Part shown: positions 3,785 to 46,176 of the stretch, piece after piece | Position numbering within the stretch: position 1 is the first letter of the stretch | How the letters are laid out: each line of letters begins with the position of its first letter | NCBI GenBank assembly: GCA_019352195.1 | Contig: JACAFG010000005.1 | Span: 27,582 to 91,581 of the forward strand | Length of the DNA: 64,000 bases | Direction of reading: 5' to 3' | From: Candidatus Saccharimonadota bacterium | GTDB lineage: Bacteria > Patescibacteriota > Saccharimonadia > UBA4664 | Made by a program: the position numbers and the translations under genes | The notes under the pieces: generated by a model | What the model was told of the DNA's origin: nothing | Database searches by the model: none | What the model saw: only the letters and a program-made list of their open reading frames with translations

Positions 3785-3854
3785 GGACGTCCGGCCGACG
3801 GGTCGGCCGGCATAGATGATCCCGATATTACGACCCCCCTTAAACCCCAACTCG

Positions 3855-8591: not shown

Positions 8592-8667
8592 ATATGGCTT
8601 GTGTTTTCAGATATGGCTTGTGTTTTTAGATAATGCTTGTGTTTTCAGATATGGCTTGTGTTTTCAG
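8592..8667 (+). repeat. 4 tandem copies of a 19-bp unit ATATGGCTTGTGTTTTCAG
   Basis: Direct reading gives units at 8592-8610, 8611-8629, 8630-8648 and 8649-8667, with 1-2 nt variation. They sit inside an AT-rich ~600-nt intergenic region (8065-8683). The last unit supplies the -35 of the downstream promoter. Confidence 0.8.
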
Positions 8668-8684
8668 ATAAAAACGCTTATGAT
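8656..8684 (+). promoter_or_regulatory. sigma70-like promoter TTGTGT-17-TATGAT of the giant surface-protein gene
   Basis: -35 TTGTGT 8656-8661, 17-nt spacer, -10 TATGAT 8679-8684. The same promoter with the same AAACGCTTATGATT spacer/-10 recurs at 14886-14914. Downstream is GGAGA-3nt-GTG. Confidence 0.5.
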
Positions 8685-8713
8685 TGGAACAGTATTTTTG
8701 TGTTTGGAGACCT

Positions 8714-11700
8714 GTGAGCAGACTTTGGCTGTTAAAGCTAAATAAGCGTCCCGCCATAACACGAATCTACACCGCCCTAGCGCTTGCCGGGCTGTTTTGG
8801 GTTGGACTTATCACGCTTAACATACCCACAGCTTCGGCTACTGGTGCAGCGGGAATCTATTCAACCATCAATTACCAAGGGCGTTTGCTGACTTCGACGG
8901 GCGCCGTGGTTCCCGATGGAACGTATAACATGGAATTTCAGATTTGGCAGGACGGCAACGGTTGTGTTACCGGCTGTACTTCGGCCAATGCGTCAACCAA
9001 CAACGGCGGTACGCTTAAATGGACCGAGGACTACGTTTATGGCACCGGCTCTCCAGACAACCGCGTGACGGTGAAAAATGGCTATTTCTCGGTGAGCCTT
9101 GGTTCGATTACATCGCTGTCTAGTGTCAACTTCAACTGGGACACAAACTACCTCACGACTAATATTGGTAATACTTCGACAGCCGCTACCTTTAGCGTGG
9201 CTTCGGGCGATGGATACATGATTCCGTTTAAGCGCCTCAGCGCTAATCCTTATGCCCTTAACTCGTCGCAGCTGGGCGGCCTCACCAGTTCACAGTACAC
9301 GCAGCTCGGCCAGGGTATCCAGGGTGCCGCAACTACCGGTACGACGGCGCTTATTGGCCTCAACCAAACCTCCACCGGTACCATTTTGGACCTGCAAAAA
9401 GGTGGCGCCGACGTACTGCTTATCGACTCAACTGGATCAACTTTGTTCCGTCCCACTACCGACTCGGCTATCGCACTGCAGGTACAAAAAGCCGGTACCA
9501 CCACGACGGTGTTTACGGTAGATTCGTCCAACTCGCGCATTGGCATTGGCACGGCGGCACCAGCCTACGCCGTGGACGCGGTGGGCTCGATTAATGCTTC
9601 CACGAGCCTCAAAGTTGCTGGAACTGATGTTTGTACCACGGCTGGCTGTACCGCTGATCCGGCCTCAGCTATCAAGAACCAAAACAGTGCCCAGCAGACG
9701 AGTGCCAACTTTTGGATTTCAGGCAGCGGACGCGCTGATACAAGTATTCTCACCCCTGGACTCGATACCGCCACTGGTGTTGCCCTTGCGATTGGAACCA
9801 CGAATGCTACGAGTATTAACCTCAACGAGAGCACCAATGTAGCCACGGGCAAAACTTTTACCACAAACGGCAGTGGTTTTGACGCTACCGGTAAACTTGG
9901 CATTGGCACTACCAGCCCGGCGGCCAACCTGGACGTACACAGTACCGCCACGACTGGAAATGCGCTGAGCGTTACGGCGAACAACCTAACCACCGGTATC
10001 GCCGTCAATGTCTCCAGTAGCCCTACCGCCGGGACAGGCGGCGCGCTTATTAATGCCAGTCAGTCAGGAACTATAACTACGTCTGGTACCGTGGGTGGCT
10101 CGCTGCTCAATGTGCAGCGCAGTATTACGGCCAATGTGTCAGCAGCAAGTGCGATCACGTTTGATTCTAAAACCACATCTTCGAGCTACACGTGGTCGCA
10201 CACCGTAGCCAGCCAAACGAACCGAATTTTAATTGTGGAATGTGATTCTTCGAGTGCAGCCACTAGTGCTACCTATAACGGCGTTGCTATGACTTTGATT
10301 GGCACCATCACGAACCCATCGAACCCATCAGCGTTAACCTTCTGGAAGCTCCTTGCTCCGGCCACTGGAACTCACGCGGTTACTATGGACCAAAACTGCA
10401 ACGTTGGTGCTGCTATAGGTGGCGTTTCCAGTAGTTGGTATAACGTTGATCAGACTACAGGCACAGGGACGTTCAGTAGCAATGACGCGGCGGCTAACAA
10501 TGTCTCGGTCAGCGTGGCATCGTTATTTGGCCAGGTGGTGATTGACGGAGCCGATGCCTACTTAAACGGTTATAGTTCATGGACAAATATTCCTGGCTCG
10601 GGTCAAACTATGCTCCTCAATCCTTCGTTGAGTTACGATTCGGTAGGGGCTAGTTATAAGGCTGGGGCCGCCACCTCAACTACTATGACCTGGAACTTCA
10701 GCGCTGGCGCTGGTGTACATATCTATATCGGTGGTTTTGCGCTTATTCAAGCACCGACTGGTTCCGCGGTAAACCTAGTGGGTTCGATTGTAAACCTTGG
10801 CTCCAACTGCACTAACACCGCGGGCGGATGTGCCGACAACAGTAGTATTTTGAGCCTAAACCAGCAGTACGCTAGTGCTTCAGGCGCTGTGGCAACGTTG
10901 CAGAATGCTGGAACCGGAGATATGGTCGATTTCCTGAACGGCTCATCGAGCATACTATCGGGCTTCGACTCGAGCGGTAACCTGTTTTTCAATAACTCTA
11001 CCTTCAAGTCCACGCTGAGTACGGGTACCCTCTCAGCGCCGCGATCGATCACGTTGCCAGACGCGAGCGGCACGGTGTGTTTGTCGGTAGGTAACTGTAG
11101 TGCAGCGGGTGGGTACATTGTCAATGGCACGAGCTTGCAGGCCAGCTCTAACTTCCATATTTCGGGCAGTGGAACGGCCGACACGAGCCTGTTGACCCCG
11201 ACCTTGGATACGGCGAGTGCTAGTGCATTGTCGATCGGAGTCACTGCAGCTACCACCATCGGCCTCGGCCGTAGCGGCCAAACGCTCAACATTGGCAGCG
11301 ATGCGATTAACCTCAATAACGGCTATTTGAATGTGGCAGGTACCACGTCGGCCACCAATTCGAAAGCATCGCTGGCTGGGACCGTGGCCTCGAGTACTAC
11401 TTCGCAATATGGGTTGGATAACGAAGTGGCCTTTAATCCGCAAGTAGCTATTACCGGCGCGGTGTATGGCAGCGTCAATATTCCCAACTTGTCGGGCAGC
11501 GCTCTGGCTGTTAGTTCGCTGCAAGGCTTTACCGCCGGAGTAAAAGAAACGGGCGGCGTTGGCAATTTTACCGGTACGGTTACGGACGCAATCGGGCTCA
11601 ACATTACCTCACCTCAAATCACGGGTGGTGGCAATAAATTTACCACCTACACGGGAGTCGACGTGGGTGCCAACTCCATTAACGGCGGTAACACCTCCGG

Positions 11701-14700
11701 TATCCTCACGAACAACGGCATCATCGTCGAGAGTATTTCGGCCGGCGCGGGTTCCGGTGGGACGGTTAATAACTACGGTATTAATCTCGCCCAGCCGAGT
11801 GGTAGCGGTACCGGCACGACCAACAACTACGGCATTAACATTCAGGGTGCGGGTGGTGGCTCTAACAACTACTCCATCTACAACCAATCGACGGCGGCCA
11901 GTTACTTCTCGGGCAATGTTGGCATTAACCAACTGACCACCGGCTCCTACAACCTGAATGTAAACGGCACGGCTAACTTTGCGACCAGTATTAATGTGCC
12001 GAGCATTACATCGAGTGCGGGCCTCACCTTGGCGACTACGGGGACGAACGGTCTGACGGCTGATACAGGTGGAGCAGGGACTATCAAAGTTGGTGCGGCC
12101 AACGCCAACAGTATTTTGATTGGAACAGCGACAACAGCCCAGGCATCTGGCGCGACAGGCACTATCTTCATTGGCAACACGAACTCAACAATTGTCGGTA
12201 TTTCGGGTCAAACGGTTGGTGTTGGTTCACCCTCCGGTGGCGCGCTGTTTATTACGGGCGGCGGTGTCAATGTGCAAGGTGCGTCGGCATTGGCGATGCT
12301 TTTCAATGTCACCAACACATCAAACAAGACCATCCTTCATGTCGATAGTAGCGCTAATGTGGTGAGCTTGGGCCAAACTTCAAACCTGACTGGCCAACTG
12401 CAATTTAGTAATGCGACGAACGCGTTTACGTCGACGATTCAGGGTAACACGGCAGCAACGGCGAGCTACACGTCGATTTTGCCCGGCGCGGTAGGGTCGG
12501 CTGGTCAATGTTTGACCGTGGCTAGCGTGGCCTCGACAACGCAAACCCTGGGTTATAGCGCTTGTGGCGGCGGTAGCTACGTAACGTTGCAAGGTGTTAC
12601 GCCCGGCACGGCCGATACTGGTAATCTCAATATTACTGGCACGGGTATCTTTGCTACTCAGATAACTTCGCCGATCGTTAAGACAACGAACCTGCGCCCA
12701 ACGGCCGACGGCACCTCGGCTATTCAATTCCAGAACGCTGCTGGCACCACTAACGTGTTGACGGTTGATACTACGAATAGTCGAATTAACGTAGGTACCA
12801 ATGGCACACCGACTGGGCAATTGTATGTTTCGGGTACTTTGCCGACGGCTGCGGCTGGATCGGTATCAACTGGCTCAGCTCCTAATAACATTTACGTTCA
12901 AGGTCATTACGCCTATACAGCCAACTATAGCTCTAGCACGCTCGGTATTTATGATGTCAGTAACCCCGCCGCCCCTTTCAGTGTAGGGTCGGTCTCTATC
13001 TCCATAGCGACCAATGTCTATGTTCAGGGTCGTTATGCCTATGTTACAAGCCAGGGCAGCGGTGGCATTGTCATTGTTGATGTCAGTAATCCAAGCAGTC
13101 CGATCAGTGTTGGCTCGGTAGCTACGGGGAGTAATCCCAAGAGTATATTTGTACAAGGAAGTTATGCGTACGTAGTCAATAACGGAGCTAGTACCATAAG
13201 CATTGTTGATGTTCACAATCCGGCAAGCCCCACAATCATCGGATCTACGGCTACAGGCCTCAATCCAAGCAGTGTTTATGTCCAGGGCAGGTATGCCTAT
13301 GTGATAAATAATACTGCGAGTACCTTGAGCATTATTGATGTCAACAATCCGGCAAGTCCATCCAGTGTTGGATCGGTAGCTACTGGCTCCAACCCAAATG
13401 CCGTCTTTGTTCAAGATAACTATGCATATGTAACAAATAACAGCGGTGCCGGGATGAGCGTCATTGATGTCTCGGCCCCAAGTGCGCCATCGAGCGTGGG
13501 TACCGTAGCAACCGGTACGTCTCCCAACGGTATTTACGTTCAAGGACGGTACGCCTATGTGGCAAATAGTGGCTCAAACACAATTGGCATTTACGATGTT
13601 GGTGGCGCCTACACGCAGCAACTGGAGGCGGGCGGAGCACAGCTAGGTATGCTGGCCGTGGATGGCAACTCTACGTTGGCTGGAGATGCCTCGGTGCAGG
13701 GCGGCCTGCAGGTAGGGCAGAGCGTCCAAATTGGGGGCGATGCCGGTATTAACGGTGGCTTGTCGGTGGGGGGCTCGGCGTCATTCGATGGTCCCGTGCA
13801 GGTAGGTTCATCGCTTACCGACACGACGCAGGTAAACTTGCAGCTCGATTCGACGAGCTTGTTCGCAGATAGCGGCACTTGCAGCACCACCACTAATCAG
13901 GGTGCCTTGTATTACAATACCAACACCAACGCCATCCGGAGTTGTGTGGGCGGAGCGTGGGAAGACGTGATAACGACGAGTGGTCTTGGCCTGGTATTAT
14001 TTGGTATTGTGCCCGACGGTGTAGCAACAACCGGTGTCGGCGACTTGGCTGGTGCCGGCGGATATAATTCGGGTCCGTGCAAAGTTTACATGAGCGGTAC
14101 GGCAAATATTATTGTCTGGAACTCGTGTACGGCGTACTCGAGTGGCCGCAAAGTGGCGGTGGCCGCCGGTACAGCGACGGTGAGTTCGAGCACGAGTGTC
14201 TTCCAAAACTTGTGTATCAATACATCGGGCGTGGCGGCGCTGGTGGGAACGGCTAACGCCACAGAAACTACCGCTGGCCTGTTCCCGGCCTTTTCACCGA
14301 GCGCACCAATACTGTGTTTGGCTACCATAAAAACGGCGACGGTAGCGAATAAAGTGGCGGCAATTTACGATACGCGCGTATATACCACCGATGACAAGAC
14401 CATTGCGACCATTGCAACTACTACCGGCCTTGGATCGATGGTCACAAACAACGGCACCCTCGGTCGCTATGCACCCACGAGTGCGGTAACCAACTCAATT
14501 ATGGGCGTGGTGGTGGCCTATAGCGGCACGGTGAGTACGGCAACGCCGAATGCGATTATTGTTACCTATGGTCCAGTGGCCATTAAAGGCACGGGTACTT
14601 CTGGCACGATTGCCCAGATGATTGAATGGGGTGCGGCCAACGGTTATGCCACCACGGTGGCGGCGGCGACGACGGCCACCAACCCTTATACGTATGCTGG

Positions 14701-14794
14701 TGTGGCCCAAAATACCAATGGTACCGTAGCGGCAGGCTGTGCTGTGTACACGGCATGTAGTGGGTCGTTGTTTACTACTTTTGCGCCAAGATAA
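8714..14794 (+). CDS. giant secreted cell-surface protein with LVIVD beta-propeller repeats
   Basis: The ORF track gives 8684..14794 (2036 aa) from a TTG that lies upstream of the predicted transcription start site (TSS). The likely start is GTG 8714, preceded by GGAGA, giving MSRLWLLKLNKRP... plus a hydrophobic core and ASA cleavage site. Seven tandem ~40-aa LVIVD-type repeats (YVQGRYAYV...IVDVSNP) lie at ~12890-13600. The protein is T/S/G/A-rich, with GIGTTSPAANLDV tail-fibre-like motifs. Confidence 0.8.
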   Translation: MSRLWLLKLNKRPAITRIYTALALAGLFWVGLITLNIPTASATGAAGIYSTINYQGRLLTSTGAVVPDGTYNMEFQIWQDGNGCVTGCTSANASTNNGGTLKWTEDYVYGTGSPDNRVTVKNGYFSVSLGSITSLSSVNFNWDTNYLTTNIGNTSTAATFSVASGDGYMIPFKRLSANPYALNSSQLGGLTSSQYTQLGQGIQGAATTGTTALIGLNQTSTGTILDLQKGGADVLLIDSTGSTLFRPTTDSAIALQVQKAGTTTTVFTVDSSNSRIGIGTAAPAYAVDAVGSINASTSLKVAGTDVCTTAGCTADPASAIKNQNSAQQTSANFWISGSGRADTSILTPGLDTATGVALAIGTTNATSINLNESTNVATGKTFTTNGSGFDATGKLGIGTTSPAANLDVHSTATTGNALSVTANNLTTGIAVNVSSSPTAGTGGALINASQSGTITTSGTVGGSLLNVQRSITANVSAASAITFDSKTTSSSYTWSHTVASQTNRILIVECDSSSAATSATYNGVAMTLIGTITNPSNPSALTFWKLLAPATGTHAVTMDQNCNVGAAIGGVSSSWYNVDQTTGTGTFSSNDAAANNVSVSVASLFGQVVIDGADAYLNGYSSWTNIPGSGQTMLLNPSLSYDSVGASYKAGAATSTTMTWNFSAGAGVHIYIGGFALIQAPTGSAVNLVGSIVNLGSNCTNTAGGCADNSSILSLNQQYASASGAVATLQNAGTGDMVDFLNGSSSILSGFDSSGNLFFNNSTFKSTLSTGTLSAPRSITLPDASGTVCLSVGNCSAAGGYIVNGTSLQASSNFHISGSGTADTSLLTPTLDTASASALSIGVTAATTIGLGRSGQTLNIGSDAINLNNGYLNVAGTTSATNSKASLAGTVASSTTSQYGLDNEVAFNPQVAITGAVYGSVNIPNLSGSALAVSSLQGFTAGVKETGGVGNFTGTVTDAIGLNITSPQITGGGNKFTTYTGVDVGANSINGGNTSGILTNNGIIVESISAGAGSGGTVNNYGINLAQPSGSGTGTTNNYGINIQGAGGGSNNYSIYNQSTAASYFSGNVGINQLTTGSYNLNVNGTANFATSINVPSITSSAGLTLATTGTNGLTADTGGAGTIKVGAANANSILIGTATTAQASGATGTIFIGNTNSTIVGISGQTVGVGSPSGGALFITGGGVNVQGASALAMLFNVTNTSNKTILHVDSSANVVSLGQTSNLTGQLQFSNATNAFTSTIQGNTAATASYTSILPGAVGSAGQCLTVASVASTTQTLGYSACGGGSYVTLQGVTPGTADTGNLNITGTGIFATQITSPIVKTTNLRPTADGTSAIQFQNAAGTTNVLTVDTTNSRINVGTNGTPTGQLYVSGTLPTAAAGSVSTGSAPNNIYVQGHYAYTANYSSSTLGIYDVSNPAAPFSVGSVSISIATNVYVQGRYAYVTSQGSGGIVIVDVSNPSSPISVGSVATGSNPKSIFVQGSYAYVVNNGASTISIVDVHNPASPTIIGSTATGLNPSSVYVQGRYAYVINNTASTLSIIDVNNPASPSSVGSVATGSNPNAVFVQDNYAYVTNNSGAGMSVIDVSAPSAPSSVGTVATGTSPNGIYVQGRYAYVANSGSNTIGIYDVGGAYTQQLEAGGAQLGMLAVDGNSTLAGDASVQGGLQVGQSVQIGGDAGINGGLSVGGSASFDGPVQVGSSLTDTTQVNLQLDSTSLFADSGTCSTTTNQGALYYNTNTNAIRSCVGGAWEDVITTSGLGLVLFGIVPDGVATTGVGDLAGAGGYNSGPCKVYMSGTANIIVWNSCTAYSSGRKVAVAAGTATVSSSTSVFQNLCINTSGVAALVGTANATETTAGLFPAFSPSAPILCLATIKTATVANKVAAIYDTRVYTTDDKTIATIATTTGLGSMVTNNGTLGRYAPTSAVTNSIMGVVVAYSGTVSTATPNAIIVTYGPVAIKGTGTSGTIAQMIEWGAANGYATTVAAATTATNPYTYAGVAQNTNGTVAAGCAVYTACSGSLFTTFAPR

Positions 14795-33061: not shown

Positions 33062-33125
33062 TCGATCGATACGCACCACAACGGCCGCGCGGATCTTACC
33101 GGCGGCCGTTGTTTGTTGCTAGGTT

Positions 33126-37280: not shown

Positions 37281-37595
37281 TTACGAGCCAGAGCTAACAG
37301 CTCCCAAAAGCACCAGATTGGCCTCGTGGATGAGGTCTGGCCGAGCTTCGAACAGAGCGGCCTCGGCATGGATGATACGGGCCAAATTGCACCGGATTTG
37401 CTGCTGGTGCGGGCTACCGGGTTCGCTGGCCAAATAGGCGAGCAGAGCGTCCGCATCCACCCAGAGGGCGCAGTATTCGGCCAGTTCGCGCTGCTTCACA
37501 GCGCTACCGGTCATGAAGTAAAGGCCGGCCTCGATGAGGCCAAGATGTGGCGGCAGGGTGGCCGACACGTTTGTCGAAGAGCGAGGAGTCGTCAC
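37281..37595 (-). CDS. hypothetical protein (104 aa), island gene a
   Basis: GTG 37595 is preceded by AGGAGG-5nt. It has its own TTGACA-17-CATAAT promoter at 37647-37675. GC is ~60%. Confidence 0.5.
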   Translation of the reverse strand: MTTPRSSTNVSATLPPHLGLIEAGLYFMTGSAVKQRELAEYCALWVDADALLAYLASEPGSPHQQQIRCNLARIIHAEAALFEARPDLIHEANLVLLGAVSSGS

Positions 37596-37674
37596 GGCGA
37601 CCTCCTTTCTAGAGTTGAAGTCGCGTAAACGCATCGGGTTGGCGAAATTATGCGAGAAAATACAACAAGTGTCA

Positions 37675-37723
37675 ACAAAAGCGAAACCGCCCGCTCCCAA
37701 GCTGTAAACTCGGGAGCGGGCGG
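37675..37723 (-). terminator. rho-independent terminator after island gene b
   Basis: 12-bp GC stem CCGCCCGCTCCC / GGGAGCGGGCGG (37687-37723), followed on the minus strand by TTTCGCTTTTGTTG. Confidence 0.6.
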
Positions 37724-37741
37724 CGGATTTCGATGAGCGGG

Positions 37742-38563
37742 TCAGTAGGCCTTGGCCCGATGGCTGCTCGCGTGACGCCAAGCATTGCGTGCGTGGACCG
37801 ACCTGGCTCGGCCGATGGGGCCAAATTGCTGGCCCGTGCCAGGTCCAGTCGTTGGGGCATCAGAAGGCAGGGACCTTCGCAACAGCGAATCTTGCAACCA
37901 GGCGTCGGTCGCCGATTTGGCGGGAGCCTTGTTGGCCAACGTATGGCCCGGGCTAGCCGGATCGACGAAGACCGTCTGGAAAGTATGCCGCTTCGGAAGC
38001 AAAGGATCCGCGACGGCGACTGAACGTTGGACCGCGTCGAGTTGATCCTGATCCCAGCGCGACAAGGCTTCCTTGGTCCCGGGGAGCCATCCGTTGCCGC
38101 TGATGTCGGCGATGGCCCATTGATGTCTGGCCCTGAAGCGTCGCCGCTCATCTGAAACCTGCTCGAATCTACTCAAGACATCCACGAGCGAGGAAAAAGT
38201 CTCCCTTGCCTTCGCGTTCTGGAGGGAATGCTCACCCTCGTAGAGCGGGTTTCTGAAGCGCTGGTAGCCCTCTGTCATATCGGTCCAGTCGAATATATTA
38301 GTGGTCCTTGTGAGATCAACATGAGCACCATCCTCGCCGAATCCGTAGGGCTTTTCCTGCCAACGCGGATAGAGGCGTTCGGTGAGCTCGTCCGTTCGGG
38401 CGAAGATGTCATCGCCTGGCTGCTCTGGCGGCGCGGTCAACTTGGCGGCGGCGAGTCGGGCCGTGAATGCGTCACGGATGGACGGCAAGTCCTCGCCGTT
38501 GTCGCTGGTCAAGGCGATGAGGCGGCGAAATGGATTCTCCTGCGGCGGTTCGGGAATGGTCAT
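37742..38563 (-). CDS. hypothetical protein (273 aa), island gene b
   Basis: Its ATG overlaps the stop of the upstream 60-aa gene (ATGA). It is R/D-rich with no family recognised. Confidence 0.6.
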   Translation of the reverse strand: MTIPEPPQENPFRRLIALTSDNGEDLPSIRDAFTARLAAAKLTAPPEQPGDDIFARTDELTERLYPRWQEKPYGFGEDGAHVDLTRTTNIFDWTDMTEGYQRFRNPLYEGEHSLQNAKARETFSSLVDVLSRFEQVSDERRRFRARHQWAIADISGNGWLPGTKEALSRWDQDQLDAVQRSVAVADPLLPKRHTFQTVFVDPASPGHTLANKAPAKSATDAWLQDSLLRRSLPSDAPTTGPGTGQQFGPIGRARSVHARNAWRHASSHRAKAY

Positions 38564-38742
38564 GGCAGAAGCCTTTCGGAAGTTGGGGACGCGGGGAGTT
38601 GGGGCGTGACGGGTATGTGGTCAGATTCGGCGACGGGCCAGAGCGCGTCAGTGACGCGCACTTGGGCCGGTACACCGGGAGCAATCGACCACATGGTGAC
38701 AACGACGAGCTCGCGCGCGTCGGGGACTTGGGATATGGGCAT
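38560..38742 (-). CDS. hypothetical small protein (60 aa), island gene c
   Basis: ATG 38742 is preceded by GAGGAG-7nt. It is translationally coupled to gene b. Confidence 0.55.
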   Translation of the reverse strand: MPISQVPDARELVVVTMWSIAPGVPAQVRVTDALWPVAESDHIPVTPQLPASPTSERLLP

Positions 38743-38810
38743 ACAACAACTCCTCTGGTTGGGGCGCAAATTGTGGAGAGCTGGGTTTTGAGACAAAACT
38801 TGATTGCATA

Positions 38811-38839
38811 ATTATGTGTGTAAAAGTGCTTTTTGTCAA
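38811..38839 (-). promoter_or_regulatory. TTGACA-17-CATAAT promoter of c-b operon
   Basis: Minus-strand -35 is the complement of 38834-38839; -10 is the complement of 38811-38816. The identical hexamers are used for gene a. Confidence 0.5.
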
Positions 38840-39211
38840 CAACTAAATGCCTTACAAACGAAAGGACCCACCTTCTCGTGATACTTGAGAGGATGGGCCG
38901 GTAAACGGCAACCAGGTACGGTCGTCGTTTAGATGGTGAACGGGGAGCGGCAGGCTGAGTTGCGTCGCATGAACGCGGCGGGCAGGCTAGCGCCGGGTCG
39001 GTAGGCCATGCGAGCCGAATCGATGACCGGCGGGGCGGAGCGTGTCTGTCGAGTGCGAGATTTCGCAGGGCTGCAGGATAGGCGTTGGGATTGTTTTTCA
39101 GCAGTGTTCTGATGTCCTCGTTGCTGAGTCCATCAGTCGCCGAGATGCTGGCGGGGCTGAAATCCGTCATGGGACGGTCCTTTCGATCGAGCTGGGTTGA
39201 GAGTTGAACTG

Positions 39212-39499
39212 TTACCGCTTGAGAATGGCGGCCATTTGTTGGCCGACGCCGCTGATGAATAACTCGGGGCGGCGAACCATGGCCCCGCGGATGAGCGCCA
39301 GGGCATCCATTTGGTTGTCGGTGAGATAGGCTCCATTCATGATGATCCTCAGATAGCCGGGATCGATGAACTGCATCGCCACCGTGATGCCGGTATCCAG
39401 CCCGGCCGTGAAAAGCGCATTTGACGCGGGGTCGGTGTCGGCCGCCTCACGCACGGCGTGGATGAGAGCGAGCAGGGTCGGGGCGGTGGTATCCGTCAC
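39212..39499 (-). CDS. hypothetical protein (95 aa), island gene d2
   Basis: GTG 39499 is preceded by AAAGGA. A TTGACT-17-TATGAT promoter lies at 39554-39582. The 20-nt RBS region TCGATCGAAAGGACCGTC is duplicated at 39171-39190, in front of a degenerate second copy. Confidence 0.45.
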   Translation of the reverse strand: MTDTTAPTLLALIHAVREAADTDPASNALFTAGLDTGITVAMQFIDPGYLRIIMNGAYLTDNQMDALALIRGAMVRRPELFISGVGQQMAAILKR

Positions 39500-39716
39500 T
39501 TGACGGTCCTTTCGATCGATGTAAACCAGCACGACAGAACTGCCGATTAAGTTATCATAGCACAAAATATGGTAATAGTCAACTATTCGCATCACCCATT
39601 GTTGCTTAGGTAAGGGAGATCTGGTATGCTTGCTCGGTCAAATCAACGAACGAAGCAACCTAACCGTAATCCTCCCGCTCGGGTGGTTAGGCGAAGCCGA
39701 AAGGACACAATTTAAA

Positions 39717-40511: not shown

Positions 40512-41099
40512 ATGGCTGTTTCAATTGAAGATATTAAGAAGCTCCGCGACGCTACGGGCGCCGGGATGATGAAGGCCAAAGAAGCATTGGAGGCTGCCAG
40601 CGGCGACTTCGATAAGGCGATCGAACACTTGCGCAAAAGTGGTGCGGCATCGGCGGCTAAAAAGGCTGACCGTGAAGCACGCGACGGTGTTATCGAAGGC
40701 TACGTTCACTCCGGTCGCATCGGTGTACTCGTGGAAATTAACTGTGAGACCGACTTTGTGGCTCGCACTGAAGATTTCAAAGGCTTTGCCCGCGATATTG
40801 CGATGCACATTGCCGCCGCTAACCCAACCTACGTAACCCCGGCCGAAGTCCCCGCCGACGTTATCGAAGCCGAAAAGCGCGTCTACGCCGAGGACACCAA
40901 GGGCAAGCCGGAGGAAATTGCTGCCAAAATTATTGACGGTAAGCTGGCCAAGTTTTACGAAAACGTTTGTCTGGTCAAGCAGCCCTTTGTCAAAGACCCG
41001 GACAAGAGCATAGAAACGCTCACCGGCGAGCTGGTTGGTAAACTGGGTGAAAACATCGTTATTCGCCGCTTTACCCGCATGGAGCTCGGTCAGCTCTAA
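40512..41099 (+). CDS. tsf: elongation factor Ts
   Basis: IKKLRDATGAGMMKAKEAL signature. A short 195-aa form. Confidence 0.9.
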   Translation: MAVSIEDIKKLRDATGAGMMKAKEALEAASGDFDKAIEHLRKSGAASAAKKADREARDGVIEGYVHSGRIGVLVEINCETDFVARTEDFKGFARDIAMHIAAANPTYVTPAEVPADVIEAEKRVYAEDTKGKPEEIAAKIIDGKLAKFYENVCLVKQPFVKDPDKSIETLTGELVGKLGENIVIRRFTRMELGQL

Positions 41100-41153: not shown

Positions 41154-41183
41154 CAAAAACACCGCTTGTGGCGGTGTTTTTGG
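41154..41183 (+). terminator. bidirectional terminator after tsf
   Basis: AAAAAC-ACACCGC-ttgtg-GCGGTGT-TTTTTGG. Confidence 0.6.
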
Positions 41184-41227
41184 TATAACGGGCGCCTTGG
41201 TGATAACTTATGCCTAGCAGCAACGAA

Positions 41228-41254
41228 GCCCCACAGCGGGGCACGCCGTGGGGC
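41228..41254 (-). repeat. variant copy of the GC-rich palindromic element (GCCCCAC-13nt-GTGGGGC)
   Basis: It has the same 7-bp stem and the CGAAGCCCCAC flank as the five main copies. It lies downstream of the 41283..41615 ORF. Confidence 0.6.
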
Positions 41255-41282
41255 AGCAATGATGAGGAAGTGCACAGATTGG

Positions 41283-41615
41283 TCAGCTCCCGCGAACCTT
41301 CGAAATTCGCTGAACCGGACCGGTCACAAATGGGAAACTATATTTCAAACTGAACAGCCACATTGGCTCGCCGCATTTGATGACGGTTGCTGCAGGGTGG
41401 TAGGGATCATGATGCGGGCAGAGGAGCTTGACGTCGCTTGCAAATGGAAAGGTGGAAAAGGGGGTTGTCCCAAATGCTTCCCACGTAGTGGCGAGTCTCC
41501 AAATCTTGATTGTGTCGTCATCGCTAAGCTGTATGACATAGCTGCCACTTACGCGGACCCCGGTATCTATTTGATACCTGCCGCAGCCGACGGTGGTGTC
41601 GAGTTGGTTCCTCAC
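41283..41615 (-). CDS. hypothetical ORF with WD40-repeat-like fragment
   Basis: 110 aa. The motif SGSYVIQLSDDDTIKIWRL resembles a WD40 blade. It may be a remnant. Confidence 0.3.
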   Translation of the reverse strand: MRNQLDTTVGCGRYQIDTGVRVSGSYVIQLSDDDTIKIWRLATTWEAFGTTPFSTFPFASDVKLLCPHHDPYHPAATVIKCGEPMWLFSLKYSFPFVTGPVQRISKVRGS

Positions 41616-41683
41616 GTGAGGGCTCTTTTCTATGACGAGGGTTTTGTTTTGGATATAGTGACCCCAGCACGGTTATTTGGCAA

Positions 41684-41720
41684 GGCGAAGCCCCACTGGC
41701 AATGGGGTCGCCGGTGGGGC
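41684..41720 (-). repeat. GC-rich palindromic element copy 1 (terminator-like)
   Basis: GCGAAGCCCCACTGGCAATGGGGTCGCCGGTGGGGC lies immediately 3' of the A1 stop. Confidence 0.75.
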
Positions 41721-41727
41721 AGGATGG

Positions 41728-42447
41728 TCAGTGGGACAGATTGTAGTGCCGGATGAGCGCGCCGGCCAGCGCAGTGAGGACCTCAGTGTCGCCGGTGCTC
41801 AATTGGTGCCCCCCGTTTCGCAACTGGCGCAAGTGGACAGCAATCGACTGGGGCGTGTAGCCGATGAGGTCGCCGAGCTGAGCCAAGCCGCAGGCTTTCA
41901 ACAGCTCCAGTTTACGCCTCGAAATATCGATGCGTGGGTGCTTTATGCGGAACATGTCGTTGCAGGCTCTCGTCAGCGTGATGGCCCGAAACTGGTCCAA
42001 CGGCACATAGATAGCGCCGTTGATGGTGGGGTAAGTGAACCAGTCGGCGCGGTTACCGGCTGCCGAACCCAGTTCCACCCCAGCCCGCGAGAGCAAGCCG
42101 AGGATGATGTTGACGCGGTTGACGCCCAGGCCTCTGATATCGGAAAGCTCCTTACGAGTGATCAACGCACAGTCGGCCAGGGAATTGATCCACAGATGCT
42201 CCTTGAGAGGGCACACCGCCGTGAGCTCCTCACCCTGGAGCTGGCGGCTCAGATCGAGGAGCGGCATGTCAGGGTCAAGCTTAGGCTTGGGCCCGGCCGA
42301 ACTGAAGGCCATCACCCTGTCGTCCACCGCGGCAAAGTAGCGATTGGAGCCATTAGCCGTGAGCACGAGGCGTGGGTCGGACAAAAGTATTTGTGTGACA
42401 GCGTCGGTGTCGTCGGGCTTAACCTCGAGAACAATTCGTGTGCGCAT
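41728..42447 (-). CDS. family A protein 1: tandem alpha-CTD-like helix-hairpin-helix domains
   Basis: 239 aa. The segments ADCALITRKELSDIRGLGVNRVNIILGLLSRAGVELG and ISRRKLELLKACGLAQLGDLIGYTPQSI both match the RpoA C-terminal domain pattern (LSxRxxNxLKxxxIxxIGDL...EL...G...I..L..RG). Confidence 0.7.
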   Translation of the reverse strand: MRTRIVLEVKPDDTDAVTQILLSDPRLVLTANGSNRYFAAVDDRVMAFSSAGPKPKLDPDMPLLDLSRQLQGEELTAVCPLKEHLWINSLADCALITRKELSDIRGLGVNRVNIILGLLSRAGVELGSAAGNRADWFTYPTINGAIYVPLDQFRAITLTRACNDMFRIKHPRIDISRRKLELLKACGLAQLGDLIGYTPQSIAVHLRQLRNGGHQLSTGDTEVLTALAGALIRHYNLSH

Positions 42448-42484
42448 GGGAGCGCCTCTCTGTGAGGAACGATTTTGAAATCAG

Positions 42485-42518
42485 GTTATATCAAAGCAAA
42501 ATAATCCTCAAAAGTCAA
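42485..42518 (-). promoter_or_regulatory. promoter of A1 (extended -10 TGaTATAAC; TTGACT upstream)
   Basis: Minus strand reads TTGACT...TGATATAAC. The -35/-10 spacing is 22, so it is probably extended-minus-10 driven. Confidence 0.4.
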
Positions 42519-42531
42519 TATTTGCGCCCAA

Positions 42532-42568
42532 GACGAAGCCCCACTGGCAATGGGGTCGCCGGTGGGGC
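42532..42568 (-). repeat. GC-rich palindromic element copy 2
   Basis: Identical 37-mer lying 3' of the A2 stop. Confidence 0.75.
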
Positions 42569-42576
42569 AGGGAAGA

Positions 42577-43293
42577 CTAGAGCTTGATATCGCAGTGGGA
42601 GGCAATCTGCCACAAGAAGATGGCTACATGGGGCGGCATATTTTGGCCGTTGGCTTGCAGCTGCCGCGAATTGATAGAGTCTATGGTCTGGCCGCGCAGA
42701 TCTCCCAGCGTACGCAAGTCCAGGGCCGCCAGCGTGGTATCGCTGATGTAGACATCGGGGCGATGCTGATGGTCGAGGGTGCATTTTACCCCGATCCAGC
42801 TGTCAGCCCACCTGAGCGGGATGGCACGAAACTGAGCTGGGGGGACCAATTCATCCAGAAATTTGTAGCCGCTACGCTGGTACTTGGCCAGCGAACCCAC
42901 GGTTACATGCGCTTCTTCGAGCAGGTCGATCAAAGCCTGGAGCTTCATTGGGCCCATACCCAGGAGACGGCCGAGCTCCGCTTCGGTGACGAAGGAACAG
43001 TCGGCGAGCCGATTAATCCACAAATGCCGCTCCATTAAAATGGGGACGGCACTGGATTGGTGGCCGCTCAGGTGGGGCACGAGATCGCTGAACGGTACGT
43101 CGGCCAAGTCGTCGACATAATTATCGACCCGAATATTGTTTTGGGCGCACAGACGCAACAGCTGCGCGCTCAAGCTCTCCTTGCCTAAGGGCGGAGCCGG
43201 CGTTCCTTCCGCCGTGGCTTGGATAGCGGCGCACAATCTCAGGACGAGACGGAAATCAATGTCGGCGGCTGGATTTACCACGGTATTGGTCAT
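42577..43293 (-). CDS. family A protein 2 (paralog of 41728..42447)
   Basis: 238 aa. It shares HLWIN[SR]LADC...GLG and PxxQFRAI blocks with A1. Confidence 0.7.
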   Translation of the reverse strand: MTNTVVNPAADIDFRLVLRLCAAIQATAEGTPAPPLGKESLSAQLLRLCAQNNIRVDNYVDDLADVPFSDLVPHLSGHQSSAVPILMERHLWINRLADCSFVTEAELGRLLGMGPMKLQALIDLLEEAHVTVGSLAKYQRSGYKFLDELVPPAQFRAIPLRWADSWIGVKCTLDHQHRPDVYISDTTLAALDLRTLGDLRGQTIDSINSRQLQANGQNMPPHVAIFLWQIASHCDIKL

Positions 43294-43339
43294 GGCATAC
43301 TCATTTCAAGGTCAGAAGGGATAGGAAGGGAGTAGAAGT

Positions 43340-43368
43340 CTTATAACACTATATTATTCTTAAGTAAA
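43340..43368 (-). promoter_or_regulatory. promoter of A2, TTTACT-17-TATAAG
   Basis: -10 is the complement of 43340-43345; -35 is the complement of 43363-43368. Confidence 0.5.
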
Positions 43369-43383
43369 GAAATGATGGTCCAA

Positions 43384-43420
43384 GACGAAGCCCCACTGGC
43401 AATGGGGTCGCCGGTGGGGC
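43384..43420 (-). repeat. GC-rich palindromic element copy 3
   Basis: Identical 37-mer lying 3' of the B1 stop. Confidence 0.75.
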
Positions 43421-43439
43421 AGGGAACGAGCTAGAGGTG

Positions 43440-44003
43440 CTACTCGAACGATTCGGTATCAGGGTTAAAGGGGACGTAAGTCGTTCTCGCTGCCACGTAC
43501 GTAATGGGATCGAGAGGGTCGGTGATATGGGGTCCCTGCGCTTGCAGCATCGTGGTGAGTATCGAAATAGAGTTGAGCCAATCGTTGGGCACGAAGACGA
43601 TGCTCATATCGTCGTTGCCGCTATCGCGCCGGATAGCCTGTGCAAGCACTTGCATCTCCGCCAGATTCAAGGGATCGACCTGGCAGAAGGCGTCAACGAG
43701 AAACGCTTCGAGCGAGGTACCGAGGAGATCCCAAGTGATGTTCTTGCGGTTCTCGTGCCATAACTGCGCAGACGGTGCTTCGCCTATTCTCGTTTGGCGG
43801 TGATCGTGCAACCGCGGTCTGGTCATGCGGTCGAAGTACTCCCCGATGAGGGGATCATTGACCGCGACGAGGATCGCTACTTCGTGGCGTCCGTAGTTCG
43901 GATTGGTGAAGGTCCAAACTTTATTCACCGGACGAAGTTTGAGGAGCTCTCTGGCGAAGAGCTCAGACCTCATGAGCCGAGATACTTCCTGTTGGGGCGA
44001 CAT
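43440..44003 (-). CDS. family B protein 1 (unknown function)
   Basis: The ORF track gives 43440..44129, but its 5' part runs through the upstream element and promoter. The predicted TSS is ~44060. The start is chosen at MSPQQ (GGAGA-4nt-ATG, 44003). The alternative MTSGDP start is at 44021. The conserved C-terminus is FNPDTESFE. Confidence 0.65.
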   Translation of the reverse strand: MSPQQEVSRLMRSELFARELLKLRPVNKVWTFTNPNYGRHEVAILVAVNDPLIGEYFDRMTRPRLHDHRQTRIGEAPSAQLWHENRKNITWDLLGTSLEAFLVDAFCQVDPLNLAEMQVLAQAIRRDSGNDDMSIVFVPNDWLNSISILTTMLQAQGPHITDPLDPITYVAARTTYVPFNPDTESFE

Positions 44004-44066
44004 AGGGTCTCCAGATGTCATGGGGTGCAAAAGCCGTGGCCGGATGGTCATAGCTTGGTTATGGTA

Positions 44067-44095
44067 TTTATAACTTGAAATGCTAAAAAAGTCAA
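44067..44095 (-). promoter_or_regulatory. promoter of B1, TTGACT-17-TATAAA
   Basis: -10 is the complement of 44067-44072; -35 is the complement of 44090-44095. Confidence 0.6.
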
Positions 44096-44110
44096 TGATT
44101 GAGTGCAAAC

Positions 44111-44147
44111 GACGAAGCCCCACTGGCAATGGGGTCGCCGGTGGGGC
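44111..44147 (-). repeat. GC-rich palindromic element copy 4
   Basis: Identical core lying 3' of the B2 stop. Confidence 0.75.
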
Positions 44148-44157
44148 TGAGTGAAGG

Positions 44158-44733
44158 TCACTCGTGGTCCTCGAAGGAGGCGGTATCTGGATTGAAGCGG
44201 GCGTAGGTCAGGGCCGCCAGGTTGAAGGTCTCGGGTTCGAGTGGGTCGGTGATGGAATCTACTCCCAGTCGGTACAGCTTTTCTGTCAGCACCGAAACAC
44301 AGTCGAGCCAGTTGTTAGGCGCCAGAATGATGCTCATGTTGTGGTTGCCGCTATCGCGCTGCATAACGCCAGCCAGCTCCTGCATCGTCGCCAGATTCGC
44401 GGGCTCGATCTGGCAGAAGGCGCGGACGAGAAACGCTTCGAACGAGGTGCCGAGGAGATCCCAGGTGATGGTCTGGCGGTCCTCTACCCAATACCTATCC
44501 GACGTCAAGTCGTTGTATCGGGTGCGGCGGTGACGGTGAGCCCATGGCAGGGCCAGGCGCTTGAAGTACTCGTCGACCAGGCGGTCGCGGACCGATACGA
44601 GCATGGCCGTTTCCGGGTGTCCGAAGTTGGGGTTGGTAATCGCCCAAACTTTGATCACGGGGTCAAGCTTGAGCAGCTCTCTGGCCATGAGAGCAGGCCC
44701 GGTGAGCCGAGATACTTCCTGTTGAGTCGACAT
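44158..44733 (-). CDS. family B protein 2 (paralog of B1)
   Basis: The 5' UTR-start region ATGACATCTGGAGACCCTATGTCG is conserved at nucleotide level with B1. The protein shares WDLLGTS[LF]EAFLV and FNPDTASFE. The start is chosen at MSTQQ (44733); the alternative is 44751. Confidence 0.65.
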   Translation of the reverse strand: MSTQQEVSRLTGPALMARELLKLDPVIKVWAITNPNFGHPETAMLVSVRDRLVDEYFKRLALPWAHRHRRTRYNDLTSDRYWVEDRQTITWDLLGTSFEAFLVRAFCQIEPANLATMQELAGVMQRDSGNHNMSIILAPNNWLDCVSVLTEKLYRLGVDSITDPLEPETFNLAALTYARFNPDTASFEDHE

Positions 44734-44796
44734 AGGGTCTCCAGATGTCATGAGGTGCGAAAGCCGTGAGCGGGTGCTGACGGCTTGGTTATACAA

Positions 44797-44825
44797 TTTA
44801 TAACTTTAAATTGTTAAAATGTCAA
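44797..44825 (-). promoter_or_regulatory. promoter of B2, TTGACA-17-TATAAA
   Basis: -10 is the complement of 44797-44802; -35 is the complement of 44820-44825. Confidence 0.6.
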
Positions 44826-44840
44826 TGTTTTGGTGCGGAC

Positions 44841-44877
44841 GACGAAGCCCCACTGGCAGTGGGGTCGCCGGTGGGGC
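44841..44877 (-). repeat. GC-rich palindromic element copy 5 (one substitution, CAGT for CAAT)
   Basis: Lies 3' of the B3 stop. Confidence 0.75.
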
Positions 44878-44887
44878 TGAGTGAGGG

Positions 44888-45439
44888 TTACTCGTTGATG
44901 AGGAGGTACCGGGCGAAGTCGCCGGTGCCCGGGCGATAGAGCTGGGGGGCGTTGGCCGCGACGGAGAAGGCGCGGGCCTCGAGCGGATCGACCACCTCCT
45001 GGGTGGGCAGGCGGGCGTCGAGATGATCGGCGTTGTAGCGCCAGAAGGGTGCCACCAAGACGATGTCCAGGCGCCCGAGGAACAGGTCATCGATGAGTGC
45101 CGCGCCTTCATCGCCGTACTGCTGGTAGAGCTCACCGACGAGTTCTTCCCAGCGGATGTCAAGGAGGTCCCAGACGAGTTCGAGGCGGGTTTCGGGCGCC
45201 TCCGTGGTCCAGCTGTGGCCGTTGTCGTCGGAATCGGTATCGACGATGATGTACGGGACGGCCAGCCGTTCCATGTAGACCTCGGCGAGCTCGGGGGTGA
45301 CCTCGACCGCGAGGCGGGCCACGGCATTGTTGGCATCGTTCGGTGCGACGGCGACCCGGCAGATCTCGGTCACGCATTCGAGGCGAAACAGCACCTGGGC
45401 GGCCAGGTGCACGGTGGTGAGTTCGACGCTTGCGGGCAT
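44888..45439 (-). CDS. family B protein 3 (divergent acidic paralog)
   Basis: It shares WDLL..., the [LI]V[FL]V[PA][NP][DF]W block, and the C-terminal YRPGTGDF (cf. FNPDTESF). The start is chosen at MPASVELT (GGAG-6nt-ATG). The alternative MELLMPAS start is at 45451. The ORF-track start at 45550 lies upstream of the promoter. Confidence 0.55.
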   Translation of the reverse strand: MPASVELTTVHLAAQVLFRLECVTEICRVAVAPNDANNAVARLAVEVTPELAEVYMERLAVPYIIVDTDSDDNGHSWTTEAPETRLELVWDLLDIRWEELVGELYQQYGDEGAALIDDLFLGRLDIVLVAPFWRYNADHLDARLPTQEVVDPLEARAFSVAANAPQLYRPGTGDFARYLLINE

Positions 45440-45505
45440 GAGTAACTCCATGTTGTGACCAGGGTGCGAAGCTCGCACCAGTTGAGGGTAGAGCTTGATT
45501 AGGCA

Positions 45506-45534
45506 ATTATAACTATGTTGACACAATAAGTCAA
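45506..45534 (-). promoter_or_regulatory. promoter of B3, TTGACT-17-TATAAT
   Basis: -10 is the complement of 45506-45511; -35 is the complement of 45529-45534. It overlaps, face to face, a plus-strand TTGACA at 45518-45523 upstream of frr. Confidence 0.6.
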
Positions 45535-45615
45535 TACTATTTAACCACAACCGGCAACGATACGCCTCGTTGTGATAAAATTAGTGAGAATTTCAGCTAA
45601 TATCCGAGGTAACAA

Positions 45616-46176
45616 ATGGTACGACAAATTATTGATGGCGCCGATCCAAAAATGCAAAAAGCGATTGAGCACTTAGACTCGGAGATGACCTCGTTGCGAA
45701 CGGGACGAGCTTCGACGTCGCTGGTTGATAGCCTGATCGTTGAGGTTTACGGCGTGCCGCAGCCGCTCAAGGCCATTGCCAGTATTAACACGCCGGACTC
45801 GCGTTCAATTGCCATTACGCCTTGGGACCGGACGAGTTTGCCAATTATCGAAAAAGCCATCCGCGAAAACCAGCAGCTGGGGCTCAATCCGAATAACGAC
45901 GGTACGGTGATCCGCCTCAACATCCCTTCGATGACCGAAGATCGTCGCCGCGAAGTGGTTAAGAGCCTGGGCGCCAAAGTCGAGGATTGCCGCATCGCGC
46001 TGCGCAATATTCGTCACGATACGCTCGGTGAAGTTAAGAAGCTGGAAAAAGCTAAAGAAGCGACGCAAGACGACGTTAAATTTGCTGAAACCGAGCTCAA
46101 TAAGAAAATTGAGACGTTTCAGCGTAAAATTGAAGAATTGGAAGCGGCCAAAACCAAAGAGATTATGTCGGTTTAG
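45616..46176 (+). CDS. frr: ribosome recycling factor
   Basis: 186 aa, with typical RRF conservation (VIRLNIPSMTEDRRRE). Confidence 0.9.
   Translation: MVRQIIDGADPKMQKAIEHLDSEMTSLRTGRASTSLVDSLIVEVYGVPQPLKAIASINTPDSRSIAITPWDRTSLPIIEKAIRENQQLGLNPNNDGTVIRLNIPSMTEDRRREVVKSLGAKVEDCRIALRNIRHDTLGEVKKLEKAKEATQDDVKFAETELNKKIETFQRKIEELEAAKTKEIMSV

Follow-up and report, generated by a model that had tools for sequence, protein, structure and literature searches.

An array of five orphan genes with promoter-like sites and a shared hairpin between tsf and frr of a Candidatus Saccharibacteria genome

Between tsf and frr, two core translation genes of a Candidatus Saccharibacteria metagenome-assembled genome, lies a head-to-tail array of five small genes on the minus strand, each preceded by a promoter-like site and followed by the same GC-rich hairpin. 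An earlier note on this DNA had described the array; here, we analyze the 64-kb stretch that contains it (the “window”; the array genes carry locus tags HJC99_04675-04695 in GCA_017884045.1). We refer to each promoter-like site, together with its gene and hairpin, as a “unit”. The five genes fall into two protein families, A (A1 and A2) and B (B1, B2 and B3). Judging from gene order in six related genomes, the array is a lineage-specific insertion into a tsf-frr junction at which the two genes are normally adjacent or overlapping. By alignment, B1 and B2 arose by a 730-bp tandem duplication with breakpoints outside the hairpin. The reading we favor, with a probability of about 0.55, is that the locus is a lineage-specific, moron-like accessory islet of orphan units that grew by tandem duplication and carries terminator-like hairpins. 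The novelty is modest: two orphan families, an unusual insertion site, and one invariant hairpin.

Insertion site, genes and growth of the array

The array interrupts an rpsB-tsf-frr-uppS-rseP cluster. A scan for Frr in one genome per GTDB species yielded six related Saccharimonadia loci (L002-L007), with Frr identities of 53-69%. The order rpsB-tsf-frr is found in all six, with uppS next in five and rseP present in every case. The gap between tsf and frr is only 5-27 nt in each, and none has a homologue of A or B. In the window, the tsf-to-frr interval is 4516 nt (~4.5 kb) long and encloses the five minus-strand genes. The tight spacing of tsf and frr in relatives that lack the units points to a lineage-specific insertion, as the earlier note had proposed in calling the array an accessory locus. 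A conserved operon, which would have spoken against that proposal, was not found, all five genes being missing from the related genomes. The same note supposed that pyrH normally lies between tsf and frr; this was mistaken, since pyrH is absent from that position in all six relatives. The age of the insertion can be resolved only to roughly the family level because the nearest relatives at hand are distant.

In three of the relatives (L002 and L003, both at ~9995-10003, and L005 at ~3174-3182), a GTATGA sequence combines the stop codon of tsf with the overlapping start codon of frr, implying that tsf and frr are translationally coupled there. The insertion in the window abolishes this overlap. 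On the left flank, tsf (EF-Ts; 40512..41099, plus strand; Pfam EF_TS) is 70-74% identical to the tsf of L002-L006. It is followed by what reads as a canonical bidirectional terminator, AAAAACACCGC-TTGT-GGCGGTGTTTTT, at 41155..41181, and this DNA is missing from the relatives, where frr directly succeeds tsf. On the right flank, frr (ribosome recycling factor; 45616..46176, plus strand; Pfam RRF; 67-69% identity in L002-L006) lies downstream of a possible extended −10 element, TGaTAAAAT, read at 45573..45581 on the plus strand. Severed from tsf by the insertion, frr has probably gained a promoter of its own at this site.

Sequence matching the locus is present in the Logan assembly of SRR11551193, in which one contig (L001; SRR11551193_2975) independently confirms the frr-B3-B2 junction. 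The contig ends at 10616, 40 nt past B2 and within the repeated hairpin; such repeats fragment k-mer assemblies. B1, A1 and A2 were not recorded from that assembly.

The NCBI annotation of GCA_017884045.1 has exactly the five genes that had been proposed, and no other. All are on the minus strand: A1 (41728..42447; 239 aa), A2 (42577..43293; 238 aa), B1 (43440..44003; 187 aa), B2 (44158..44733; 191 aa), and B3 (44888..45439; 183 aa). A1 and A2 are 36% identical at the amino acid level, B1 and B2 58%, and B3 is ~25% identical to B1 and B2. Profile-profile comparison with hhalign shows no relationship between A and B, so the division into two paralogue families, one of two members and one of three, stands. 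Gene GC had been put at ~60%; the measured range is 55.5-66%. For B1/B2, dN/dS (the ratio of nonsynonymous to synonymous substitution rates) is 0.53 with a dS of 0.61, and other pairs have dN/dS values of 0.52-0.85 with dS ≥1.0. That the paralogues can be aligned with such ratios indicates that they are real protein-coding genes. The array genes evolve fast, under relaxed or partly diversifying selection, and the suggestion of a diversifying locus is consistent with this (dN/dS ~0.5).

The growth of the array can be read directly for one pair of genes. In the alignment of B2 with B1, homology starts at ACGAGTRACC, in the last codons of the upstream neighbor B3 and 18 nt before the hairpin. It spans the hairpin, promoter-like site, leader, and most of the coding sequence, with TTCGAG, close to where the B gene terminates, as its far limit. 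The unit so defined is 730 bp, a length confirmed by the spacing, and B2 ends in SFE|DHE*, its last three codons and stop codon deriving from the duplicated 3′ end of B3. These limits, together with the B2 terminus, are the hallmark of a simple 730-bp tandem duplication, and the idea of an amplifying locus is thereby borne out for B1 and B2. The only readable junction lies outside the hairpin and so gives no pointer to a hairpin-based cassette mechanism. Neither a recombinase nor an integrase or transposase turned up when the genes of the window were annotated and scanned.

A 110-aa open reading frame (ORF) at 41283..41615 on the minus strand had been suggested as a possible sixth gene. Its GC content by codon position (0.505/0.486/0.604) shows no coding-type periodicity, it has no Shine-Dalgarno sequence, NCBI does not call it, and it matches neither Pfam, PADLOC, or PHROG entries nor the A and B profiles. 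The stretch around it, 430 nt closed by a degenerate sixth hairpin, is most likely a decayed unit rather than a gene. Searches of this relic (41259-41686), of the rest of the window, and of every fetched locus turned up no trace of A or B.

Near-consensus promoters with 17-nt spacing had been reported for each gene, although the four sequences given did not include one for A1. A scan recovers three of them, those of B3 (TTGACT-17-TATAAT, 11/12 matches; 45506..45534), B2 (TTGACA-17-TATAAA; 44797..44825), and B1 (TTGACT-17-TATAAA; 44067..44095). The site of A2 (TTTACT-17-TATAAG; 43340..43368) was found by reading the sequence, as was that of A1 (TTGACT-17-TTTGAT; 42490..42518), which with 9/12 matches is the weakest of the five. 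All are on the minus strand. The −35 hexamers are in register, lying 21, 21, 21, and 19 nt from the preceding hairpin; the B3 site has no hairpin upstream. Leaders are 45-65 nt long, and in the B units they contain a GGAG Shine-Dalgarno sequence; the AATCAGC with which leaders of B relatives elsewhere start corresponds to AATCAAGC or AACCAAGC in the window. The intergenic modules are longer than the ~70 nt first estimated (129-154 nt, or 90-113 nt without the hairpin), and they are not AT-rich when the hairpin is included (GC 48-53%). From these features, we infer that each array gene would be an independent transcription unit.

The shared hairpin

The same palindrome had been noted after every gene, and this was confirmed. 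Its 34-nt core, GAAGCCCCACTGGCAATGGGGTCGCCGGTGGGGC, occurs five times, four times exactly and once with a single substitution, against an expectation of 0 in shuffled sequence. A search for the repeat elsewhere had been proposed; within the window, it gave no copy of the core outside the array. The 37-nt hairpin blocks, located by repeat search and folding, are all on the minus strand: after A1 (41684..41720), after A2 (42532..42568), after B1 (43384..43420), after B2 (44111..44147), and after B3 (44841..44877). The block after B2 lies within the 730-bp duplication unit and is a copy of the block after B3, which carries the one substitution, enlarging its loop. A looser pattern based on the outer stem recovers these five hairpins from the window, plus one diverged sixth at 41228..41254 (minus strand). 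The sixth keeps the outer stem (GCCCCAC/GTGGGGC) and the CTTCGT tail, differs in its inner stem, and forms a perfect 11-bp stem.

Folded as sense-strand sequence, the block gives a 12-bp stem that has one C·A mismatch and carries a 5-nt C-rich loop (~−20 kcal/mol), and it starts 7-17 nt past the stop codon in all five genes. When the intergenic regions are aligned, a conserved block of ~40 nt, consisting of the hairpin and a CTTCGTC tail, stands out, with identity falling sharply at both edges. Rho-independent terminators consist of a GC-rich stem-loop and a U-tract just past the stop codon. The tail that follows the hairpin, CUUCGUCUU, has 5 U in 9 nt and no run of three or more, and a terminator scan flags only an alternative inner fold, in two of the five copies. 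Terminators elsewhere in this genome resemble the hairpin in form. The repeat was not found in viral contigs, and among metagenome contigs, the loose pattern matched only an unrelated clpX intrinsic terminator of the same shape, three times.

C-rich loops are typical of small RNAs that target Shine-Dalgarno sequences. Four stretches of the array (43384-43485, 42532-42621, 44841-44937, and 44111-44182, minus strand) gave sub-threshold matches to the Rfam family sX13, a Xanthomonas small RNA (20-27 bits against a gathering threshold of 50). These matches, driven by the C-rich loop, are probably meaningless.

Five copies sharing 34-40 identical nucleotides amid such neutral divergence exclude passive inheritance, and the copies that follow the unrelated A genes make the strongest case. 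We infer that the invariance reflects either sequence-specific recognition, of DNA or of RNA, or short-tract gene conversion, two explanations that are not separable here.

Families A and B and other orphan genes

The HMM and structure searches proposed in the earlier note gave nothing significant on function, although they did yield distant relatives of B and faint hints for A. When 1.84 billion cluster representatives were searched exhaustively with HMMER, family B proved to have four distant relatives (P0006-P0009; E 2e-12 to 2e-5). By contrast, a word-indexed search of 5.8 billion proteins returned only self matches for family B. It did the same for family A, a weak negative given that the exhaustive run covered B alone and that the word-indexed search, made with a seven-member B alignment, missed the known relatives P0006-P0009. 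Neither family has a match in phage, plasmid, or viral collections. Nothing above threshold was found in Pfam, PADLOC, PHROGs, or NCBIfam for the six ORFs or the B relatives. PDB profile searches gave none for B and one meaningless match for A.

The B relatives are unnamed metagenome proteins. Each is encoded by a lone gene whose neighbors have housekeeping or cell-wall functions, and one of the contigs that carry them is 1.1 Mb long, as would suit a small genome of the Saccharibacteria type. In three loci, the neighbor is a cell-wall enzyme: in L085 (10001-10582), the B gene comes after PBP1a, a transglycosylase/transpeptidase; in L086 (10001-10615), it lies beside a LysM-CHAP hydrolase; and in L090 (6251-6757), it comes after a DPBB_1 (RlpA-like) protein. 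These neighbors could be a coincidence or a functional hint. All three loci have the same kind of unit, with a TTGACA/TTGCAT-17-TATAAT/TATAGT promoter match, a leader starting with AATCAGC, a GGAG Shine-Dalgarno sequence, and a terminator hairpin. The hairpins differ from one another and are unrelated to that of the window. In L086, a second consensus promoter match sits directly behind the hairpin. Family B is rare; all contigs known so far to carry it come from metagenomes, belong to small genomes alike in gene content, and are probably from Saccharibacteria.

B3 is the array member closest to the wider family, and it shares with the outside relatives the motif (I/V)Ixx(x)DxDDNGHxW (DTDSDDNGHSW in B3), which is lost in B1 and B2. 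Family B is acidic. A Toprim identity was considered and rejected: Toprim_2 matched B3 alone (E 0.13), the acidic motif is missing from B1 and B2, and hhalign against the DnaG Toprim domain, with an approximate query sequence, aligned only 12 residues (E 0.35). Inspection of N-termini revealed no signal peptide in the A and B products, which are thus probably cytoplasmic.

A1 is an ORFan, and profile scans of its family point faintly toward the C-terminal domain of the RNA polymerase alpha subunit (alpha-CTD) and SAM-like folds. The hits are to Pfam RNA_pol_A_CTD (E 0.12), TIGR02027 rpoA (E 0.12), and PRK07758 (E 0.23), none significant. In addition, hhalign against the Escherichia coli alpha-CTD gave an E value of 0.006 but a probability of 6%, and Foldseek gave an alpha-CTD probability of ~0.5 on a poor model. 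Family A may therefore carry an alpha-CTD/HhH/SAM-like helical domain of the nucleic-acid-binding type; the five signals are independent and weak, and none is significant alone.

In base composition, the array genes depart from their surroundings. GC content at third codon positions (GC3) is 0.69-0.86 in the array, highest in B3 (0.86), and 0.52-0.67 in the core genes of the window. The B relatives in other genomes have GC3 values of 0.88-0.91, with neighbors at ~0.54 (L085), ~0.70 (L086), and ~0.78 (L090). This pattern favors either a foreign origin or a recent move, after which B2 and B1 have partly ameliorated, or else an unexplained constraint on family B. Other small orphan genes in L086 also have a GC3 of ~0.8, and orphans that combine high GC3 with consensus promoters may form a general class in genomes of this kind.

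The arrangement of promoter, gene, and hairpin had been described as one that could not be recognized. It recurs at every B relative found and at four other orphans in the window, in a second minus-strand cluster (37281-39595) between rpmE (L31; 36781-37125) and rpsB. The four are o104 (37281-37595), o273 (37742-38563), o60 (38560-38742), and o95 (39212-39499), with GC3 values of 0.69-0.79 and no Pfam match. The cluster contains the promoter-like sites TTGACA-17-CATAAT and TTGACT-17-TATGAT, with consensus-like sites at 37675, 38839, and 39582, and has its own, differing hairpins, each abutting the next promoter. In the relatives, the rpmE-rpsB position is only 270-1175 nt long. One of them, L004, has a 144-aa ORF there (7854-8288, minus strand; GC3 0.87) with a TTGACA-16-TTAAAT site. 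This ORF is unrelated to the window orphans, suggesting that the rpmE-rpsB site repeatedly receives orphan genes. Within the window cluster, a 19-nt ribosome-binding region, ATCGATCGAAAGGACCGTC, is duplicated (~39195-39213 and ~39515-39533, minus strand); its copies precede o95 and an unannotated ORF that starts at 39170 and runs through the next promoter. The repeat may be a duplication trace or mark a pseudogene.

Several further features of the window were noted in passing. At 1370-5947 (plus strand), there are four tandem paralogues unrelated to the array (352-386 aa; 29-58% identical; no Pfam match), with signal-peptide-like N-termini in at least three (2624, 3816, and 4889), followed by a 362-aa orphan and a PKD-domain protein; this array probably encodes secreted or surface proteins. 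In the region 8000-14794, GC dips to 0.41 at 8-9 kb, ahead of a giant ORF (2036-2069 aa) that contains LVIVD repeats and probably encodes a surface protein. Several orphan genes, one with a weak cohesin match, lie downstream of it. At 33062-33125, the convergent genes prmC (minus strand) and htrA (plus strand) share one long GC-rich bidirectional hairpin, GGCCGCCGG...CGCGGCCG. No tRNA was found in the window.

Readings of the locus and comparison with known systems

According to the accessory-islet reading, ~4.5 kb would have been inserted at the overlapping tsf-frr junction of the rpsB-tsf-frr-uppS-rseP cluster. Each unit would consist of a sigma70-type promoter, a 45-65-nt leader, an ORF of raised GC3, and a strong stem-loop directly past the stop codon with a U-poor tail. 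The stem-loop would act as an intrinsic terminator or a 3′-end stabilizer that insulates each unit. Antisense read-through into tsf would be blocked as well, the hairpins acting jointly with the relic hairpin and with the canonical terminator of tsf. The array would have grown by tandem duplication of [hairpin + promoter + gene] followed by rapid divergence, a process seen for B2/B1 and presumed for A1/A2 and for B3 relative to B1/B2. Selection on its sequence, short-tract gene conversion among the direct repeats of 37-42 nt, or a combination of the two would have kept the hairpin identical, and the same repeats would also permit gain and loss of cassettes by unequal recombination.

Several observations weigh against this account. 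Genes that are unrelated, or whose dS exceeds 1, are followed by the same 34 nucleotides of hairpin core, even in the loop. Selection on structure alone would allow loop and compensatory changes, such as those in the sixth copy, so that something more sequence-specific than termination seems to be at work. Duplication by itself does not account for a hairpin common to two unrelated families. No run of three or more U follows the hairpin, so the hairpin may terminate weakly and part of the array may be transcribed polycistronically. Promoters and terminators alike are putative, identified as matches to consensus or structure. The distribution of the hairpin is known for the 64-kb window, and the structure models are poor (pLDDT, the predicted local distance difference test score, of 45 and 51), which makes statements about function weak.

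Another explanation is that the hairpin is a sequence-specific cis-element through which all units are co-regulated. It would act either as a DNA operator centered ~35 nt upstream of each −35 hexamer or as an RNA 3′-end element recognized by a factor of its own, for which the A proteins are possible candidates. No difference is seen in the 34-nt block, including its loop, even though dS in neighboring genes ranges from 0.6 to >1, the distance from hairpin to −35 is fixed (21, 21, 21, and 19 nt), and the hints of an alpha-CTD/HhH/SAM-like domain in A, although weak, converge. The C-rich loop and the sub-threshold sX13 matches also fit. However, the fixed spacing can be explained by inheritance through duplication, the domain hints for family A are all below significance, and hairpins adjoin promoters elsewhere with unrelated hairpins. 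The best promoter, that of B3, lacks an upstream hairpin, and no good promoter follows the last hairpin, the one after A1. Since the hairpin tracks gene 3′ ends (5/5) better than promoters (4/5), we rank terminator or insulator above operator and regard co-regulation through a cis-element as unlikely. Slightly less likely still is, at the level of function, a conflict locus, i.e., an array of immunity genes, or of anti-phage defense or anti-defense genes, with paralogues diversifying in an arms race. Tandem, lineage-restricted paralogues with dN/dS of ~0.5-0.85, foreign-like composition, seemingly strong promoters, and an acidic B family are what such a locus might show. Relaxed constraint also yields dN/dS <1, however, and there are no PADLOC, Pfam, PHROG, or NCBIfam matches and no adjacent toxin or secretion gene; moreover, where B relatives occur elsewhere, they stand singly, next to genes for housekeeping or the cell wall.

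Two further readings treat the hairpin as the mobile or recombining part of the locus. A dispersed repeat resembling repetitive extragenic palindromic (REP) sequences or miniature inverted-repeat transposable elements (MITEs), which colonized the intergenic spaces of a pre-existing gene cluster, seems very improbable. The size of the hairpin, its imperfect-palindrome shape, and its position at gene 3′ ends are those of REPs, and the sharp borders of identity suit an inserted element. But all six copies lie within this 4.4 kb, with none in the other 60 kb of the window, the window encodes no REP-associated tyrosine transposase (RAYT) or other transposase, and the copy after B2 demonstrably arose together with its flanks by segmental duplication. 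We consider least likely of all an integron-like array, or one of the CALIN type (clusters of attC sites lacking integron-integrases), in which each [promoter-gene-hairpin] was captured by site-specific recombination at the hairpin. That reading would make sense of co-oriented units with the same imperfect palindrome directly behind each ORF, of a palindrome common to unrelated gene families, of a decayed unit at the far end of the array, and of outer stems (GCCCCAC/GTGGGGC) that, by reading, are one mismatch from the attC cores RYYYAAC/GTTRRRY. Yet the hairpin is 31 nt long, against at least ~55 nt for attC, with the essential AAC/GTT replaced by CAC/GTG, and no tyrosine recombinase or transposase was found in the 64 kb. 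The cassettes have their own promoters, the hairpin does not contain the sole duplication junction that can be read, searches of viral contigs and JGI metagenome contigs did not recover the repeat, and the B relatives elsewhere have unrelated hairpins.

There is also a broader and, in our view, doubtful possibility that units of promoter, high-GC3 ORF, and hairpin are a mobile gene class of Saccharibacteria. Such a class would spread without a mobility gene of its own (e.g., by natural transformation) and enter even essential coupled operons. In this array, the invariant 37-nt hairpin would then serve as a sequence-specific signal for recombination, processing, or regulation, driving gain and loss of cassettes as well as their co-regulation.

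Saccharibacteria and other members of the candidate phyla radiation are reduced epibionts, and their lineage-specific genes, mostly uncharacterized, are the main candidates for roles in host interaction and conflict. The locus suggests that strongly promoted orphans can enter, and be tolerated in, a translationally coupled pair of essential genes, with new terminator and promoter signals appearing at the flanks. It also suggests that orphans are packaged as monocistronic units with foreign-like codon composition, a pattern that recurs across genomes, and it offers a clean, dated case in which an array grew by tandem duplication. Should the invariant hairpin turn out to be a signal that is specifically recognized, it would provide a handle on the regulation or exchange of these genes; otherwise, the locus would be an ordinary accessory islet with two new protein families.

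Some known systems were considered and set aside. A CRISPR array does not fit a spacing of 730-850 nt with coding “spacers”; a diversity-generating retroelement or retron is rejected for want of a reverse transcriptase, and a DNA-uptake sequence because no copies lie outside the locus in the window. The earlier note saw neither an integron nor a standard toxin-immunity array here, and we agree: the features of attC and IntI were not found, and there is no adjacent toxin or secretion gene and no Pfam or PADLOC family of the kind expected of a polymorphic toxin/immunity array. Searching the literature for integrons in Saccharibacteria and for the accessions yielded nothing of relevance.

The attC sites of integrons are 55-141 nt long, with the arrangement R″(RYYYAAC)-L″...L′-R′(GTTRRRY) and extrahelical bases; an integron array lies next to attI and the tyrosine recombinase IntI, which CALINs lack by definition. 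Like chromosomal integrons and CALINs, the array has co-oriented ORFs, each followed by a similar imperfect palindrome, and cargo mostly of unknown function; like sedentary chromosomal integrons, it has highly homogeneous palindromes. Unlike attC, the array hairpin is, by reading, 31 nt long, half the minimum for attC; its cores are GCCCCAC/GTGGGGC, AAC/GTT being replaced by CAC/GTG, and it has one C·A mismatch. Integron cassettes are mostly promoterless and served by a common promoter (Pc), whereas the array has four near-consensus promoter-like sites and one weaker one; there is no IntI in the window, and the duplication breakpoints lie away from the palindrome. REP sequences and bacterial interspersed mosaic elements (BIMEs) are a second point of comparison, the array hairpin being likewise a GC-rich imperfect palindrome of 30-40 nt at gene 3′ ends that could stabilize or terminate transcripts. 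Elements of that kind occur as many copies dispersed through the intergenic regions of a genome with a cognate RAYT; the six copies of the hairpin are all within 41228-44877, with none elsewhere in the window and no RAYT there. Tandem paralogue arrays, of which another lies in the same window (1370-5947), resemble the locus in its readable 730-bp B2/B1 unit and junction and in its divergence under relaxed or diversifying selection. They differ from it in that its hairpin is common to the unrelated families A and B and is 100% identical while its surroundings diverge.

Phage morons, as reportedly described by Hendrix and colleagues, are units of promoter, gene, and terminator that have entered between genes adjoining one another in relatives. 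The array differs from morons in its setting, a chromosomal translation-gene cluster (rpsB-tsf on one side, frr-uppS-rseP on the other) with no nearby phage genes, no PHROG matches, and no phage, plasmid, or viral matches. It differs also in having five tandem units with paralogy and an identical, common hairpin. What the array shares with morons is that each unit appears, from its sequence, to have its own promoter-like site and terminator-like hairpin, that the composition departs from the surroundings (higher GC3), and that the units sit between tsf and frr, which adjoin or overlap in every relative examined. There is no evidence for a new type of element; rather, promoter-gene-hairpin units look like the way in which accessory orphan genes are packaged in these genomes.

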